Origin: an uncultured Candidatus Rokubacteria bacterium
GTDB lineage: Bacteria; Methylomirabilota; Methylomirabilia; Rokubacteriales; CSP1-6
DNA: 64,000 nucleotides
Assembly: GCA_963762145.1 (NCBI GenBank)
Contig: CAVXJS010000015.1
Coordinates: 64,001 to 128,000 of the forward strand
Reading direction: 5' to 3'
Position numbers and translations under genes: made by a program. Shown here piece after piece: positions 6,601 to 49,364 of this stretch. Positions within the stretch are counted from its first letter, which is position 1, and each line of letters opens with the position of its first letter. The notes beneath the pieces were generated by a model. The model saw only the letters and a program-made list of their open reading frames with translations. It had not been told where the DNA came from and made no database searches.

Positions 6601-6776
6601 ACGTCATGGGCACCGCGGTGTTCTGGGGCATGCTGGTGGCGACCGCGCTCGGGGTGTTCCTCATCCCCGGCAACTTCGCCTTCGTCGAGGGGCTGGGGCG
6701 GTCCAAGACAAAGCGCCCCGCGCCGGCGCCCGCGCCGCACACCGGCGTGGCGCTGGGCGAGCAGGGGCATCCGTGA
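3604..6776 (+). CDS. RND efflux permease (HAE1, AcrB-like); frameshift near 6565
   Basis: MAQFFINRPI, GIVVDDAIVVVE, AKNAILIVEFAK and RFRPILMT motifs. The C-terminal TM continues in another frame to TGA 6776. Confidence 0.93.
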
Positions 6777-8161
6777 GACGCGCGGCGCTGATACCGGCGG
6801 CGGCCCTCCTCCTGGCCGCGCTGTACCGTGGGGCCCGACTATCGCCGGCCCACGGTGGACACGCCCCCTGACTTCCGCGGCGCCATCGTGCCCGCGAGCG
6901 GGCAGTCACTCGCCGATCTCACCTGGTGGGAGATCTTCCCGGACGAGGCCCTGCAGTCGCTCATCCGCACCGCGCTCGCCCAGAACTACGACGTGCGCAT
7001 CGCGGCCGCCCGCATCCTCGACGCGCGCGCCCAGGTCACGATCGCCCGCTCGTTCCAGTTCCCGGAAGCGGCGGGCTCCGCCAGCGCCCAGTACCAGCGG
7101 GTCGAGGGAACGCTCGCTCCCTTCCAGATAAAGGAGACCTTGGCCCCGGTCGGGGGGCTCGACTTGTTCTTCGAGCTCGACCTCTGGGGCCGGTACCGCC
7201 GCGGGTCGGAGGCGGCGCGGGCCGAGCTGCTCGCCAGCGAAGAGTCCCGGCGGTTCGTGATCAACACGTTGGTCTCCGACGTGGGCTCGGCCTACTTCCA
7301 GCTCCGGTCGCTGGACGAGGAGCTCGAGATCTCCCGCCGGACGCTCGACTCGCGAACGGCGTCGCTGGACCTGGTCAAGCTGCGCGAGGCCGGCGGCGTG
7401 GCGGGCATGCTGGACGTGCGGCAGTCGGAGATCCTGGTGGCCACCGCGGCCGAGGCGATCCCGGACATCGAGCGCCAGATCGAGCAGACGGAGAACGTGA
7501 TCAGCGTGCTCCTGGGGCGGCCCCCGGGGCCCATACCGCGCGGCCGCCCCCTCGGCGAGCAGATCACCGTGCCCGCAGTCCCCGCCGGTCTGCCCTCGAC
7601 CCTGCTCGAGCGGCGACCCGACGTTCGCCAGGTCGAGGAGCAGCTCGCCGCGGCCACGGCGCGCATCGGGGTCGCCAAGTCCGACTACTTCCCGCGCGTG
7701 TTCCTGACGCGGCGCCGTGGGGGCCGGCGGCATCATGGTGGATGGCCGGATGTTCGGCCCGCAAGGCATCTTCTCGGCCCTCCCGTCGTTCACGGTCCCG
7801 ATCTTCAACTCGGGCCGCGTCTCGGCCGGGGTCAAGTCCGCCGAGGCGCAGGCCCAGGCGGCCGATGTTCCAGTACCAGCAGGTGGTGCTCGGGGCCTTC
7901 CGCGACGTGTCCGACTCGCTCGTGGAATTCCGCAAGCGCCGCGAGTCCCGGGTCCAGCAGGAGCTACTGGCCATCGCCGCCGGCGACGCGACGCGGCTGT
8001 CGAACATGCGCTACACGGGCGGGGTGTCGCCGTACCTGGAGGTCCTCGACTCCGAGCGCCAGCTCTTCGACGCCGAGCTGAGGCTGGTCCGGAATCAGCG
8101 CGACGAGCTGCTCGCCGTCGTCCGGCTCTACAAGGCGCTGGGCGGCGGATGGAAGGAATGA
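6773..8161 (+). CDS. Outer-membrane efflux lipoprotein (NodT/OprM family); several frameshifts
   Basis: GPDYRRP, WWEIF, ELDLWGRYRR, LLERRPDV and LYKALGGGW, spread over three frames. Confidence 0.9.
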
Positions 8162-47744: not shown

Positions 47745-47936
47745 ATGGCTCGAATCTGTGATGTCTGCGGGAAGGGTCCGGCCGTCGGCCACAAGATCAG
47801 CCACGCCCACAACGTGACCAAGCGGCGGTGGCTTCCGAATCTGGTCTCGCTGCGCGCCATGGTCAAGGGCCGGCCGCAGCGGATGCGTGTCTGCACGCGC
47901 TGCCTGAAGGCCGGCAAGGTCGTCAAGGTCGTCTAG
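47745..47936 (+). CDS. rpmB: 50S ribosomal protein L28 (Zn-binding form)
   Basis: [12 protein letters not shown]...[15 protein letters not shown]...VCTRCLK. Confidence 0.96.
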
Positions 47937-47943
47937 CTCGGTA

Positions 47944-47978
47944 GAAAAAGAGGGCGGGGGGTGTCACCACCCCCCGCC
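47944..47978 (-). terminator. Intrinsic terminator of the minus-strand AbiEi-like/micropeptide unit
   Basis: 11-bp stem GGCGGGGGGTG / CACCCCCCGCC with a GUGA loop, followed by CTCTTTTT on the minus strand. Confidence 0.8.
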
Positions 47979-48051
47979 GTACTCTGCAGCGTAGCTTCTG
48001 AATGAGTCCCGGTGGGAGGCCGCCACCCCCCACCGCACGACTACCGCACAC

Positions 48052-48093
48052 TTACTTCTTCTTCTTCTTGGCCGCCTTCTTCTTCTTCGCCAT
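48052..48093 (-). CDS. Lys-rich micropeptide MAKKKKAAKKKKK (13 aa)
   Basis: SD AAAGGAGGTGA 8 nt upstream of ATG; all Lys codons are AAG; TAA stop. Confidence 0.7.
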   Translation of the reverse strand: MAKKKKAAKKKKK

Positions 48094-48137
48094 GAGGGTC
48101 GTCACCTCCTTTCATTGAGAAATAACCTCACGCTTCG

Positions 48138-48209
48138 CTACTTCCTCTTACCCTTCTTGGTGGCCTTCTTCTTGCCACCCTTCTTGACCGCCTTCTTGCG
48201 CTTCGGCAT
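48138..48209 (-). CDS. Lys-rich micropeptide MPKRKKAVKKGGKKKATKKGKRK (23 aa)
   Basis: SD GGGAGGTGA 8 nt upstream of ATG; TAG stop; starts 30 nt after the upstream gene's stop. Confidence 0.7.
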   Translation of the reverse strand: MPKRKKAVKKGGKKKATKKGKRK

Positions 48210-48239
48210 GTGAGGTCTCACCTCCCTTCGGTCGTGGAC

Positions 48240-49286
48240 TCAGTAACCCATCGCTTCGCGCCGGAGATGCGCGGCCTGATCCCGGCCGCGGCGCTCGTAG
48301 TGATAGAGGTCCGCGAAGAGCTGGGGCAGGCAGACCACCGGGAGCCCCCCCTTTGCCAGCGGGGCATAGAAGACGCCCTGGTCGTACGGAGAGAGCAGGT
48401 AGACGTTCCCCTCCCCCTCGGCCGGCCGTAGTCCCAGCGCCCGGGCCACCGGCTGCGGGTCGCCCTCCAGATAGCAGTGGATGGCCGGGAAGCGGACGTT
48501 CGGCGCCACAAGCGCGGCGCCCGAATGGAGCGTGAACGCGTACCGGCGGTGCGCCTCGTGGGCCGCCCGGCCCAGCTCCGCCACGAGCCCGCGGGTGATC
48601 CGCTCCGGGGAAAAGTAGGCCTGGACGTCGTTCTGCCGGTACGAGTAGGCCTCCACCCAGGCATCCAGGAGCTCCCCCGGCCGGGTGAGCTGGATACGCT
48701 GCTGGCCGTTCCGCTCGACCCAGGACAGCTCCTCGAGGCGCTTCACCACGTTGTGGGCATGGCCCAGGCTCACGTCGGCGGCCTTGGCCAGCTCCTCGAG
48801 CCGCCAGGCATGCTGGGGGTCTACCAGGATGACCCTGATGACCCTGGTCGCCCGGGGGGCGAACAGCGACTTCAGGGGCCGGTTGGAGGGCCGGAGGTTC
48901 GGCTTGCCCTCCTTCTCGATCAGCACGTTCTCGAAGCTCAGGTAGCAATTGCCGGAAAGGTCCAGGTACCCCAGCCCGCTCCGTTTGAGGAGGGACGCGC
49001 TCTGGGGGCTGATGTACGGGGATACCGCGACCGGGTAGGCCTCCGGCATGTCCTTGCGGATCTCCAAAAGCCTGGTCACGGCCTCCCTGATCTGCCGGGG
49101 TTGGCCGAGAGAACTGACACCAATTGCCAGTGTGTGAGGCCTGTCGCCCATCTTGAATTTCATCAGCAGATCAGCTGTTTGACCGCCTATCTTGACGTCG
49201 GCGGACTGCTCCCACCCACTGGCTTTCGACATCAACTCGCGCACCCGCTGCGCTGCCAGGGTCTTGATATCGTCTGCTTTCGCCAT
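48240..49286 (-). CDS. AbiEi-like (AbiEi_2/DUF2186-type) wHTH protein
   Basis: PYISPQSASLL..GLGYLDLSGNCYL, central HTH RLEELAKAADVSLGHAHNVVKRL, ELLDAW and C-terminal PQLFADL..RGRDQA. Confidence 0.7.
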   Translation of the reverse strand: MAKADDIKTLAAQRVRELMSKASGWEQSADVKIGGQTADLLMKFKMGDRPHTLAIGVSSLGQPRQIREAVTRLLEIRKDMPEAYPVAVSPYISPQSASLLKRSGLGYLDLSGNCYLSFENVLIEKEGKPNLRPSNRPLKSLFAPRATRVIRVILVDPQHAWRLEELAKAADVSLGHAHNVVKRLEELSWVERNGQQRIQLTRPGELLDAWVEAYSYRQNDVQAYFSPERITRGLVAELGRAAHEAHRRYAFTLHSGAALVAPNVRFPAIHCYLEGDPQPVARALGLRPAEGEGNVYLLSPYDQGVFYAPLAKGGLPVVCLPQLFADLYHYERRGRDQAAHLRREAMGY

Positions 49287-49300
49287 TCCTTCTTGTCCAC

Positions 49301-49364
49301 TTTCACTTGTTCCTTCATTTTCAGCGTATGCTGAAACCATATGAACAAATGAAAATCCTGTCAA
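49301..49364 (-). promoter_or_regulatory. Sigma70 promoter with nested dyad operator
   Basis: Minus strand TTGACA(49364-59)-17 bp-TATGGT(49341-36); two concentric inverted repeats. Confidence 0.75.

Follow-up and report, generated by a model that had tools for sequence, protein, structure and literature searches.

This study analyzed a window of 64,000 nucleotides, the whole stretch of DNA under examination, from an uncultured Candidatus Rokubacteria bacterium and identified two neighboring minus-strand micro-ORFs that encode short lysine-rich peptides. The conclusion that both are genuine protein-coding micro-genes, and that they are translated, is well supported by the sequence evidence. 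Our best explanation is that the products are polycationic micropeptides acting on RNA or the ribosome and that the operon copies of these genes are auto-repressed, a reading that we hold, as a whole, with a confidence slightly short of even.

Organization of the proposed micro-ORF operon

Micro-ORF 1 (48138..48209, minus strand) extends from an ATG at 48209 to a TAG at 48138 and encodes the 23-aa peptide MPKRKKAVKKGGKKKATKKGKRK, and micro-ORF 2 (48052..48093, minus strand) extends from an ATG at 48093 to a TAA at 48052 and encodes the 13-aa peptide MAKKKKAAKKKKK. Each ORF is preceded by an extended Shine-Dalgarno (SD) site, AAGGGAGGTGA (48218..48228, minus strand) for the first and AAAGGAGGTGA (48102..48112, minus strand) for the second. 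The two sites share the core GGAGGTGA, spaced exactly 8 nt from each ATG, and the perfect SD is 8-11 nt long at both ORFs. The original prediction had described this minus-strand pair and its SD spacing, and both ORFs were found where it had placed them. Lys occupies 12 of the 23 codons of micro-ORF 1, whose peptide is 65% K/R, and 9 of the 13 codons of micro-ORF 2; the net charges are about +14 and +9, respectively. The use of AAG for every Lys, which had also been pointed out, is true of both ORFs but is not special, because across 916 long ORFs of this genome AAG accounts for 96.3% of all Lys codons.

The genome has a GC content of 70%, and Lys makes up 2.3% of its codons. We scanned both strands of the whole genome (6.26 Mb) for ATG-initiated ORFs 8-45 aa long in which Lys makes up at least 40% of the residues. 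The scan yielded 13 rows, with an SD-like site upstream of only five distinct ORFs, two of which are the neighboring pair described here; the motif AAAGGAGGTGA occurs four times in the genome. Given the low Lys content and the rarity of SD-bearing Lys-rich ORFs, chance or base bias was rejected as the origin of the micro-ORFs.

An AbiEi_2-like gene of 348 aa (48240..49286, minus strand; Pfam AbiEi_2) lies upstream of the micro-ORFs. It is preceded by a promoter (49336..49364, minus strand) that comprises TTGACA at 49364-49359, a 17-nt spacer, and TATGGT at 49341-49336, with a T-run ahead, and that agrees with the consensus at 10 of 12 positions. A perfect palindrome, TTTCAGC-N4-GCTGAAA (49319..49336), is located at the -10/start site. 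Co-transcription of the micro-ORFs with the AbiEi-like gene, as originally proposed, is very probable: only 15 nt separate its stop codon from the first SD site, no promoter was found between the gene and micro-ORF 1, and, among 40 relatives, 39 of 40 loci retain the order AbiEi-like gene, micro-ORFs, convergent L28 gene, and recG.

Only two micro-ORFs are present between the AbiEi-like stop codon and the terminator. The spacer between them, 25 nt in this genus, is unfolded (dG -3.7, z -0.6). Micro-ORF 2 is followed by a stem-loop element (48002..48035, minus strand) in which CGGTGGGGGG-UGGCGG-CCUCCCACCG at 48035-48010 is succeeded by GGACUCAU at 48009-48002, and then by an intrinsic terminator (47943..47978, minus strand), the 11-bp stem of which (47978-47953, 10 G-C pairs) precedes CTCTTTTTCT; this is the G+C-rich stem and T-run of a rho-independent terminator. 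A hairpin and terminator had been claimed after both ORFs; the claim stands for micro-ORF 2 and fails for micro-ORF 1. The rpmB gene for ribosomal protein L28 (47745..47936, plus strand; Pfam Ribosomal_L28, 77 bits) is convergent with the micro-ORFs and is a context gene outside the unit.

We propose that these elements form one operon, running from the promoter through the palindromic operator, the AbiEi_2-like gene, ORF1, ORF2, and the stem-loop to the terminator, with the micro-ORFs as its last cistrons. The regulator gene begins with a weak SD or none. Ribosome loading would be far better at the 8-11-nt SD sites, and the micro-ORFs would therefore yield much more product than the regulator gene.

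The stem-loop at 48035-48010 has an identity of 0.99 within the genus and is unique in the genome. RNAalifold produced no consensus for it, the stems being out of register in the MAFFT alignment, and the folding values are those of single sequences, with no covariation statistics: the 41 distinct sequences folded had a mean dG of -24.9, with z below -2 in 30 of them, and a stable hairpin occupied this position in 14 of the 14 shown. Rfam searches covered 47940-48260 at E up to 1 and, at gathering scores, the micro-ORFs in 17 other loci, and neither gave a match; the rows for Ysr141 and MIR6426 were weak, fell far under the gathering scores, and lay away from the locus.

Two other candidates at the locus were rejected. 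A plus-strand ORF at 48002-48118, which would encode a hydrophobic peptide with F- or L-runs, begins with ACG in 4 of 18 relatives and was not found in 4, and its frame alternates between Phe and Leu runs with lengths of 14 to 82 aa in relatives. Read-through of the AbiEi-like stop codon into ORF1 would be in frame in this genome, and the offset varies in relatives (62, 63, 64, 66, 83, and others).

Conservation and distribution of the micro-ORFs

The cassette consists of the AbiEi_2-like gene, one to three micro-ORFs, rpmB, and recG. Both of its flanks were present at 67 loci across the order, and these loci gave 49 distinct intergenic regions. At least one K-rich micro-ORF was present in all 49, and conserved SD sites and K-rich ORFs were thus found downstream of the orthologs of the gene at 48240-49286, where the original prediction had suggested looking. 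The filter counted two micro-ORFs in 45 regions, one in 3, and three in 1; one further region carries a third micro-ORF that the filter overlooked. Several other genera, like this one, keep micro-ORF 1 as a 22-24-aa peptide. The peptide of micro-ORF 2 is identical in 21 of the 49 regions, and the remainder are 11-13-aa variants. Within the order, 137 of 182 other genomes matched a strict pattern; in the rest of the phylum 1 of 68 genomes did so, and the reversed control gave no matches. These tallies of 182 genomes include the unpublished genomes G116, G232, and G233, which also account for a few of the pattern matches listed and on which alone no claim rests, and the related sequences counted are kin rather than independent samples.

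The results of an 18-sequence alignment revealed column identities of 0.92-0.995 over the SD sites and ORFs. The mean was 0.92 at the first SD site, whose flanking spacers reached 0.80 and 0.83, and 0.995 at the second; the spacer between the micro-ORFs reached 0.65 and contained 40 inserted columns. Indels within the ORFs comprise whole codons, being 3 nt within micro-ORF 1. The variable columns of micro-ORF 1 are distributed 4/5/9 over the three codon positions. Minor-allele counts by codon position are 4/0/23, and variation in the syntenic regions only falls in third codon positions or exchanges K and R. The Ala positions and the exact length are conserved, while the Ala codons carry all four third bases, and A-to-G changes lead to Arg codons only, never to Glu. 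The starts comprise 86 ATG and 10 GTG, and the stops comprise 57 TAG, 39 TAA, and 0 TGA, compared with a genome background of 54% TGA.

The residue repertoire is limited to K, A, R, G, T, V, P, and one S; Glu, Asp, Gln, and Asn are absent from about 1,360 micro-ORF codons. As a side observation, GAG or GAA would preserve the purine tract, yet Glu never appears.

The substitution pattern is of the coding type, and the SD sites, starts, and frames are kept in relatives, as expected of ORFs that encode polycationic peptides, which is what had been predicted. These findings are strong evidence that genes of 11-24 codons are under purifying selection in about 180 species of the order, and we infer that they are translated in vivo.

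A third, solo copy in the same genome, near position 513,200 of contig 11, encodes MAKKKAAKKKKKK and has its own UP-like/-35/-10 promoter. The solo layout, in which a UP-like tract, TTGACA-17-TAGAGT/TAGCAT, an SD site, a 12-13-aa ORF, and two hairpins follow one another, was observed in 20 of the 21 loci shown. PRT-like and EamA-like neighbors accompany only some of these 21 loci, and the neighbors vary between genera. Because the solo copy combines its own promoter with changing neighbors in the same genome, the peptide is not tied to the regulator, and it would act as a product rather than as a cis-regulator. The solo gene would supply the same type of 13-mer from its own strong promoter. 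The notion of a regulator-plus-micropeptide system was consequently too narrow in view of the solo copy and of AbiEi-free relatives elsewhere, although the order of AbiEi-like gene and micro-ORFs on which it was based is conserved.

A scan of species genomes returned, among the matches listed, records labelled Nanoarchaeota, Woesearchaeota, Brocadiales, Nitrospirota, Eisenbacteria, Spirochaetia, and others. The listed cross-phylum ORFs comprise 11-19 aa (one has 47 aa), and each has an SD site and a TAA or TAG stop. Relatives of three of the cross-phylum matches keep K/A-rich micro-ORFs; two sets of syntenic loci have them at 9 of 15 and 9 of 12, a third set has them at 5 of 8 spots examined, and syntenic micro-ORFs of 11-26 codons occur in lineages labelled Planctomycetota, Nitrospirota, and Woesearchaeota. 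Among the relatives of genome G252, none of the 11 other syntenic loci has a micro-ORF, and the micro-ORFs are located elsewhere in those genomes. The cross-phylum and archaeal micro-ORFs have no AbiEi-like gene nearby. Part of the cross-phylum likeness may be convergence, since the strict motif is sporadic outside the order; in each of two other orders it was found in 1 of 61 genomes.

The AbiEi-like protein and its putative operator

The protein encoded upstream of the micro-ORFs matches AbiEi_2 (PF09952) over residues 199-342 with 24.3 bits, compared with a cut-off of 21, and its matches to HTH_IclR and MarR fall under the cut-off. It comprises an N-terminal PD-(D/E)xK-like domain, a winged helix-turn-helix (wHTH), and the C-terminal AbiEi_2 domain; its structure model (pLDDT 73.7) gave Foldseek matches to AF1548, NucS/EndoMS, and XisH at E about 1e-4. 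Of the 182 other genomes of the order, 175 carry the gene.

The palindrome is conserved across the order, is the sole perfect copy in the 6.26-Mb genome, and has extra TTTCA/TGAAA half-sites beside it. The T-run, -35, and -10 elements recur in nearly all of the upstream regions compared, which cover family f1 and other families of the order, and three of these regions read TTGACT at -35. AbiEi antitoxins auto-repress their own promoters through inverted repeats. We regard the palindrome as the putative operator of the AbiEi-like wHTH protein, which, like those antitoxins, would repress the operon copies there; the operon copy is probably auto-regulated in this manner.

No adjacent AbiEii nucleotidyltransferase gene is present at this locus. 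Homologues of the AbiEi-like protein outside the order (36-42% identity) have a nucleotidyltransferase gene directly after them and no micro-ORFs; of three such nucleotidyltransferases scanned, one passes the Pfam AbiEii cut-off and two fall under it. Elsewhere in the same phylum, no K-rich micro-ORF was found in five rpmB loci or in six loci of AbiEi homologues.

Possible functions and comparison with known systems

We propose that the peptides are the functional product and that they would act as free polycations, by charge, on a polyanion. The most probable target would be structured RNA or the ribosome, DNA would rank second, and the closest likeness would be to the tiny basic ribosomal proteins bS22, eL41, bL37, and bTHX. 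Membership of the bTHX, eL41, bS22, or histone-H1-like families, which had been suggested for the peptides, was not supported by any sequence test that could be run. No NCBIfam family was matched at E up to 10 by micro-ORF 1 and 11 orthologues, no Pfam family (HC2, PF07382, included) by nine peptides of 21-47 aa, and no PDB chain of at least 20 residues at E up to 10 in a phmmer search with ORF1 or an hmmsearch with a 12-sequence profile. Such searches perform poorly with low-complexity peptides, matches may be lost to HMMER bias filters, and the 13-mer is under every length limit. The bS22/mS38 model (PF08213, COX24_C) had no match in this genome at E up to 1, and the best bTHX match (PF17070) scored 15.4 bits, compared with a cut-off of 29.7, at an unrelated place. 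The eL41 model (PF05162) matched none of five carrier genomes at E up to 10 and reaches its cut-off in none of 14 control genomes, so that this search had no power. The peptide strings and such genes were not found in open-access papers or preprints; a description may exist in a table or a subscription journal.

Several points count against a ribosomal role as such: a length of 11-13 residues is half that of the smallest known ribosomal protein, and ribosomal protein genes rarely occur in three copies. Specific RNA contacts are disfavored by the lack of suitably placed Arg or aromatic residues, and the drift in length (11-26 aa) and sequence outside the order is easier to reconcile with a loose electrostatic role than with a fixed pocket in the ribosome. 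The likeness to tiny basic ribosomal proteins is reasonable as a functional analogy. A substitute for missing spermidine synthesis was ruled out, because the genome contains a spermidine synthase gene (146 bits) next to a SAM decarboxylase gene (138 bits). Fourteen DNA runs from soil or metagenomes contained 0.38-0.88 of the sampled words, which is not evidence of habitat, and six metatranscriptome runs contained only 0.12-0.17, which is no evidence of expression or habitat.

The hisL, pheL, and thrL leaders have 11-16 codons dominated by one amino acid, a strong ribosome binding site (RBS), and hairpins just downstream. The micro-ORFs, with 7-9 Lys codons in 11-13, resemble hisL and pheL and might likewise act in cis, translation of the Lys run sensing Lys-tRNA charging or polybasic stalling and remodeling the downstream hairpins as in his/phe attenuators or arrest peptides. 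Every lineage has a stem-loop after the ORF, an EamA-type transporter gene is located downstream of the solo copy here and in 6 of 21 related loci, and a separate K/E-rich 19-aa ORF precedes an ABC-F ATPase gene. We nevertheless consider this explanation improbable. A strong terminator and then the convergent rpmB follow in 39 of 40 loci, which leaves no downstream same-strand gene placed for control, and the solo neighbors differ between genera. Inspection revealed no antiterminator pairing, as the stop codon abuts hairpin A and no complement to a terminator arm is present; moreover, the Ala positions, the exact length, and the restriction to K/R substitutions are conserved, and the ORFs occur two to three at a time. 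The likeness to attenuator leaders lies in a short Lys-run ORF with a strong RBS and hairpins, and the locus differs from them in its tandem copies and in having neither a regulated same-strand gene nor exclusive pairings.

A role as DNA or nucleoid condensers, similar to protamines or histone H1 tails and possibly shared with the neighboring AbiEi-like protein, is in our judgment just as unlikely as control in cis. It would accord with the K/A-rich composition and with an operon partner that has wHTH and nuclease-like domains. The ESM Atlas placed the 47-aa Planctomycetota-labelled relative among unnamed clusters of 40-43 aa, the nearest Pfam-carrying cluster being HC2 (score 0.87, 17% of members), which is a lead only and is offset by the lack of any HC2 or other family match. 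At cellular salt, peptides of 11-13 residues have only a weak affinity for DNA, and the solo and other-phylum copies have no DNA-binding partner.

The micro-ORFs also occupy the slot in which homologues outside the order have a nucleotidyltransferase gene, and the palindrome fits AbiEi-type auto-repression. They could accordingly encode toxic polycations restrained by the AbiEi-like protein, in a degenerate or novel toxin-antitoxin or abortive-infection module. We regard this as highly unlikely: the cassette is core, syntenic, and single-locus across the order near rpmB and recG rather than a mobile island, the SD of the would-be toxin is far stronger than that of the would-be antitoxin, and the genome also carries a solo copy that has a strong promoter and no such guard. 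Least likely of all, with only a slight chance, is an untranslated purine-rich RNA element with SD-like motifs, such as a sponge for a protein or the 30S subunit, which would suit the low-complexity AAG repeats, the very strong anti-SD complementarity, and the conserved flanking stem-loops but not the starts and stops that are always kept, the whole-codon indels, the third-position variation, the A-to-G changes that yield Arg and never Glu, the four third bases of Ala, or the absence of an Rfam family match.

Polycationic micropeptides acting on RNA or the ribosome remain our preferred reading. A broader proposal, which we consider possible but doubtful, is that the micro-ORFs belong to a cross-domain family of the shortest conserved prokaryotic protein-coding genes (11-13 codons, M-A-K-K-K-A-A/T-K-K-K-K(-K)), missed by every gene caller, whose product would be abundant in the translation apparatus or on cellular RNA and which in Rokubacteriales would comprise three genes, with a domesticated AbiEi-type repressor controlling two. 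Such genes escape annotation because ORFs shorter than about 30 codons are dropped by gene callers, and they escape proteomics because Lys-rich peptides do not survive trypsin. The host is a major uncultured soil order, and a looser form of these 11-24-codon genes occurs in Planctomycetota-, Nitrospirota-, and DPANN-labelled genomes. If bound to the ribosome or RNA, the peptides would be an added component of translation in lineages without a solved ribosome structure and would extend the recent series of unannotated ribosomal micro-proteins bS22, bL37, and bL38; if they are general polycations, they would constitute a genetically encoded polyamine analogue. The locus also presents an AbiEi-type antitoxin or regulator domesticated into a core operon without a toxin.

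Similar to AbiE type IV toxin-antitoxin systems, the locus combines an AbiEi_2 domain, a wHTH, and an inverted repeat in the promoter. In contrast to those systems, it has no AbiEii nucleotidyltransferase and is chromosomal, core, and syntenic across the order; AbiEi_2/AbiEii-like pairs were found only outside the order.

bTHX of Thermus and bL37 of mycobacteria have 24-27 aa. They resemble the micro-ORFs in having tiny genes, their peptides fill rRNA cavities, and the Thx model and micro-ORF 1 do not match. The Hc1/Hc2 and protamine-like condensers are likewise K/A-rich low-complexity polycations, but the micropeptides are ten-fold shorter and have no PF07382 match. Both bS22 and eL41 are characterized by a position in the h27/h44/h45 pocket of 16S rRNA in the small subunit. 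According to one report, bS22 in Borreliella is encoded by an unannotated 93-nt gene, is 61% K/R, and lies in a 16S rRNA pocket, eL41 is a single helix of 24 aa, and bL37 is small and helical and lies close to the peptidyl transferase centre (PMC10618245). The micro-ORFs share with bS22, eL41, and mS38 easily missed genes, a high K/R content, a probable single short helix, and lineage specificity, and micro-ORF 1 with its 23 aa is of the same size as eL41. They differ in the 11-13-aa form, which is half the size, in a Lys/Ala composition with almost no Arg, and in the three gene copies.

In Drosophila tarsal-less/polished rice (11-aa peptides) and in Staphylococcus PSM-alpha, tandem very short ORFs on one RNA are each separately initiated and encode near-identical peptides. 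Although these systems differ from the micro-ORFs in sequence, organism, and chemistry, their peptides not being polycations, they are alike in that several very short tandem ORFs share one RNA.

Tandem micro-ORFs in a probable operon and among relatives

On re-reading of the sequence, the coordinates, peptides, Shine-Dalgarno (SD) spacing, and terminator given for the two micro-ORFs in the original prediction were all correct. On the minus strand, a promoter identified by its score (TTGACA-17-TATGGT, 49364-49336) and a perfect palindrome (TTTCAGC-N4-GCTGAAA, 49336-49319) precede the AbiEi-like gene of 348 aa (49286-48240). SD site 1, AAGGGAGGTGA (core 48218-48225), lies 15 nt past the end of this gene and 8 nt ahead of ORF1 (MPKRKKAVKKGGKKKATKKGKRK, stop TAG, 48209-48138). 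The ORF1-ORF2 spacer is 25 nt, and SD site 2, AAAGGAGGTGA (core 48102-48109), lies 8 nt ahead of ORF2 (MAKKKKAAKKKKK, stop TAA, 48093-48052). A stem-loop (48035-48010) followed by GGACUCAU (whole element 48002-48035) and a terminator with an 11-bp G+C stem and a T-run (47978-47943) complete the predicted operon. Facing this terminator from the plus strand is the convergent L28 gene rpmB (47745-47936), with recG beyond it on the minus strand. The proposal that a hairpin follows each micro-ORF held for ORF2 but not for ORF1, the spacer between them being unfolded in the window's genus. In the source genome, a CCUC within each SD-to-ATG spacer could pair with the SD core to form a small SD-sequestering hairpin; this hairpin is probably incidental because the spacer is not kept among relatives.

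The source genome has a GC content of 70%, and Lys accounts for 2.3% of its codons; a Lys-rich ORF is therein very unusual. The use of AAG for every Lys was observed, but it is expected rather than special because AAG makes up 96.3% of the Lys codons of the genome. When the whole genome was scanned for ATG-initiated ORFs of 8-45 aa in which Lys made up 40% or more, 13 rows were returned, and an SD-like site was present upstream of only five distinct ORFs, two of them the neighbours ORF1 and ORF2. The 6.26-Mb genome contains four copies of AAAGGAGGTGA. Strong GGAGGTGA sites were also located upstream of further genuine small genes, for example a 32-aa ORF (MSWETPEFIEVKMDAEINSYQDDFEREPDDRF, with GGGAGGTGA upstream; contig C10, ~69,030, plus strand), which we take to resemble PqqA. 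Strong SDs in this genome mark genuine small genes, and the Lys-rich pair is not explained by chance.

Two further micro-ORF loci were observed outside the window. A 19-aa K/E-rich micro-ORF (MAKGRSMKKEKKKPKKEKK, SD GGGAGGTGA; contig C21, ~997,250-997,330, minus strand) lies directly upstream of an ABC-F-type ATPase gene; it may be a polybasic stalling sensor, since ABC-F proteins have the ribosome as their target, and leader peptides frequently control them. On contig C9, two identical 13-aa Cys-rich micro-ORFs (MCTPTVICEVVTS; ~872,411, minus, and 874,953, plus), each with AAGGGAGGTGA, stand in inverted orientation ~2.5 kb apart; they could represent RiPP-like precursors or the ends of a repeat.

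A DNA search found the region in 40 of 40 relatives, and the order AbiEi-like gene, micro-ORFs, convergent L28, and recG was intact at 39 of the 40 loci, across which AbiEi-like protein identity fell to 54%. The conservation of SDs and Lys-rich ORFs downstream of AbiEi-like orthologs, on which the original prediction depended, was confirmed. The 67 loci with both flanking genes yielded 49 distinct intergenic sequences, and all 49 carried at least one Lys-rich micro-ORF with GG(A/G)GGTGA 5-9 nt upstream. By this filter, 45 regions held two micro-ORFs, three held one, and one held three; a third micro-ORF present at locus L033 was missed. The last ORF of the tandem was MAKKKKAAKKKKK in 21 of the 49 regions and an 11-13 aa variant in the remainder, for example MAKKKAAKKKK(K) or MAKKKATKKKKK. 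ORF1 is 22-24 aa long in the window's genus and in certain others; where this form is missing, a further 11-13-mer comes first. The stem-loop and GGACUCAU after ORF2, unique in the source genome, showed 0.99 identity, above that of the adjacent coding sequence; other families carry a differing stem sequence there, often followed by GGGACUCAU or GGCACUCAU. This element may serve 3'-end stability, processing, or as a protein site. In another family of Rokubacteriales (L027, L030-L034, L037, L040), a hairpin with the conserved apex GGGGGUGCAGCCCC and without a T-run lies between the tandem micro-ORFs; it is absent from the window's genus.

A solo gene and distribution beyond the order

A third K/A-rich micro-gene (MAKKKAAKKKKKK, SD GGGAGGGGGGTGA, stop TAA) was located alone on contig 11 of the source genome, preceded by a T-rich UP-like tract, TTGACA-17-TAGAGT, and a ~45-nt 5' leader, and accompanied by two conserved hairpins. 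The solo unit with a 12-13 aa peptide recurred in 20 of the 21 loci listed (other genera and one other family), the sole exception lying outside the order. Its flanks vary, with a PRT-like gene upstream in 9 and an EamA-like gene downstream in 6 of these 21 loci. The hypothesis that these are cis-regulatory mini-ORFs is unlikely; a unit that stands alone behind its own strong promoter, next to genes that differ between loci, suggests that the peptide is the product rather than a means of controlling any one gene.

A strict pattern (GGTGA, 4-9 nt, RTG GCN AAR AAR AAR GCN RCN AAR AAR AAR) was present in 137 of 182 other genomes of the order and in 1 of 68 in the rest of Methylomirabilota, whereas the reversed-pattern control gave no matches in 251 genomes. 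Outside the order, rpmB was examined at five loci, and no micro-ORFs were found there. A species-genome scan revealed at least 118 stretches with the pattern. Among the matches listed, seven otherwise-labelled loci (L125, L136, L138, L141, L146, L157, L160) bear Rokubacterial solo-locus or operon hairpins, and their labels or binning probably differ from GTDB placement; L125, L136, L141, L146, and L157 are titled Nitrosocosmicus, Acidoferrum, Gemmatimonadales, or Deferrimicrobiaceae, yet have ~70% GC and these hairpins. Also among the matches listed, 17 rows were clearly different DNA (28-73% GC), with labels including Nanoarchaeota, Woesearchaeota, uncultured archaeon, Bdellovibrionales, Brocadiales, Eisenbacteria, FCPU426, Spirochaetia, Nitrospirota, and Planctomycetota. 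Each of the 17 combined an SD with an ORF of 11-19 aa (47 aa in one case) ending in TAA or TAG, and the neighbours were unrelated. On L127, a contig labelled Planctomycetota, the 47-aa K-rich ORF has two Acido-Lenti-1 RNA matches ~110-300 nt away (6695-6881; 47.3 and 38.4 bits against a gathering score of 37).

Outside the phylum the strict motif was sporadic (1 of 61 genomes in each of two orders). Looser K/A-rich micro-ORFs nevertheless occurred at 9 of 15 orthologous loci in relatives of genome G251 (11-26 aa, all starting MAKK), at 9 of 12 loci in relatives of the archaeal G254 (12-21 aa; genomes ~0.8 Mb), and at 5 of 8 separate BLAST spots in relatives of G252 (13-23 aa; two being exactly the ORF2 peptide), with none in 11 other syntenic loci of the latter. 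Composition and start are therefore retained while length drifts, and convergence may account for some of the resemblance across phyla. Consistent with an abundant polycation that binds RNA or ribosomes are the strong promoter with its UP-like tract, the perfect SDs, the presence of three genes, the adjoining rpmB, and the survival of such genes in very small archaeal genomes. A looser electrostatic role is favoured by the minute size, the restriction to Lys and Ala, the multiple copies, and the drift in length outside the order; DNA condensation is as improbable as cis-regulation.

The AbiEi-like gene and its predicted control

The 348-aa protein matched Pfam AbiEi_2 at 24.3 bits (cut-off 21), and wHTH families fell below their cut-offs. 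In its structure model (pLDDT 73.7), the N-terminal part gave weak Foldseek matches to the PD-(D/E)xK nucleases AF1548, NucS/EndoMS, and XisH (E about 1e-4), and the middle part matched IclR/MarR wHTH proteins. The T-run, -35, -10, palindrome, and extra TTTCA/TGAAA half-sites upstream of the gene are conserved across the order, and the perfect palindrome is unique in the source genome. AbiEi proteins repress their own promoters, and by this analogy the palindrome is a putative dedicated operator. The SD of the AbiEi-like gene is weak or absent, so the micro-ORFs would be translated much more than the regulator from what is very probably one RNA.

The gene was found in 175 of 182 genomes of the order and in 13 of 68 outside it, where a nucleotidyltransferase gene comes directly after the homologues (36-42% identity). 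Three such genes from the same phylum were scanned (L229, L230, L233); one exceeded the AbiEii cut-off and two fell below theirs. None of these three loci had micro-ORFs. Because homologues outside the order precede AbiEii-like genes, the Rokubacteriales copy looks like a domesticated orphan antitoxin or regulator, without a toxin and with the micro-ORFs in the toxin's position. That position is what suggests toxin-slot peptides, a reading we consider very improbable.

Coding signature and possible function

In an 18-sequence alignment, the SDs and ORFs were 0.92-0.995 identical, the SD-to-ATG spacers 0.79-0.83, and the ORF1-ORF2 spacer 0.65 with 40 inserted columns. Internal indels in ORF1 were single codons. 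In 15 distinct sequences sharing the most frequent architecture, the minor alleles at codon positions 1/2/3 numbered 4/0/23, Ala was encoded by GCG, GCC, GCA, and GCT, and replacements were K to R and A to T only. No residues other than K, A, R, G, T, V, P, and a single S occurred over ~1,360 codons; Glu and Asp were absent although GAG would keep the purine tract, which argues for selection on charge rather than RNA sequence. An untranslated RNA is accordingly the least credible alternative. Starts were ATG (86) or GTG (10). Stops were TAG (57) or TAA (39) and never TGA, which ends 54% of the long ORFs of the source genome; these counts come from related sequences rather than independent samples, and even so the apparent avoidance of TGA, the leakiest stop codon, is striking.

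Judged from these sequence patterns, the micro-genes are very probably real, translated, and selected. That they also have a nucleic-acid target (RNA or ribosome first) and that the AbiEi-like protein regulates itself is, taken jointly, a tentative reading, plausible but somewhat short of probable. A role as polyamine substitute was unsupported because speE and speD are both in the source genome. No family, structure, or RNA family matching the micro-ORFs was found with sequence tools, which are weak at such short lengths, nor any paper describing such genes in the main texts of the open-access literature. The source genome contained no match to bS22 and none to Thx above the cut-off. The closest working analogy is with the very small basic ribosomal proteins that annotation misses. 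In one report, bS22 of Borreliella is the product of a 93-nt unannotated gene, has 61% K/R, and sits in a 16S rRNA pocket, and eL41 is a 24-aa helix (PMC10618245).
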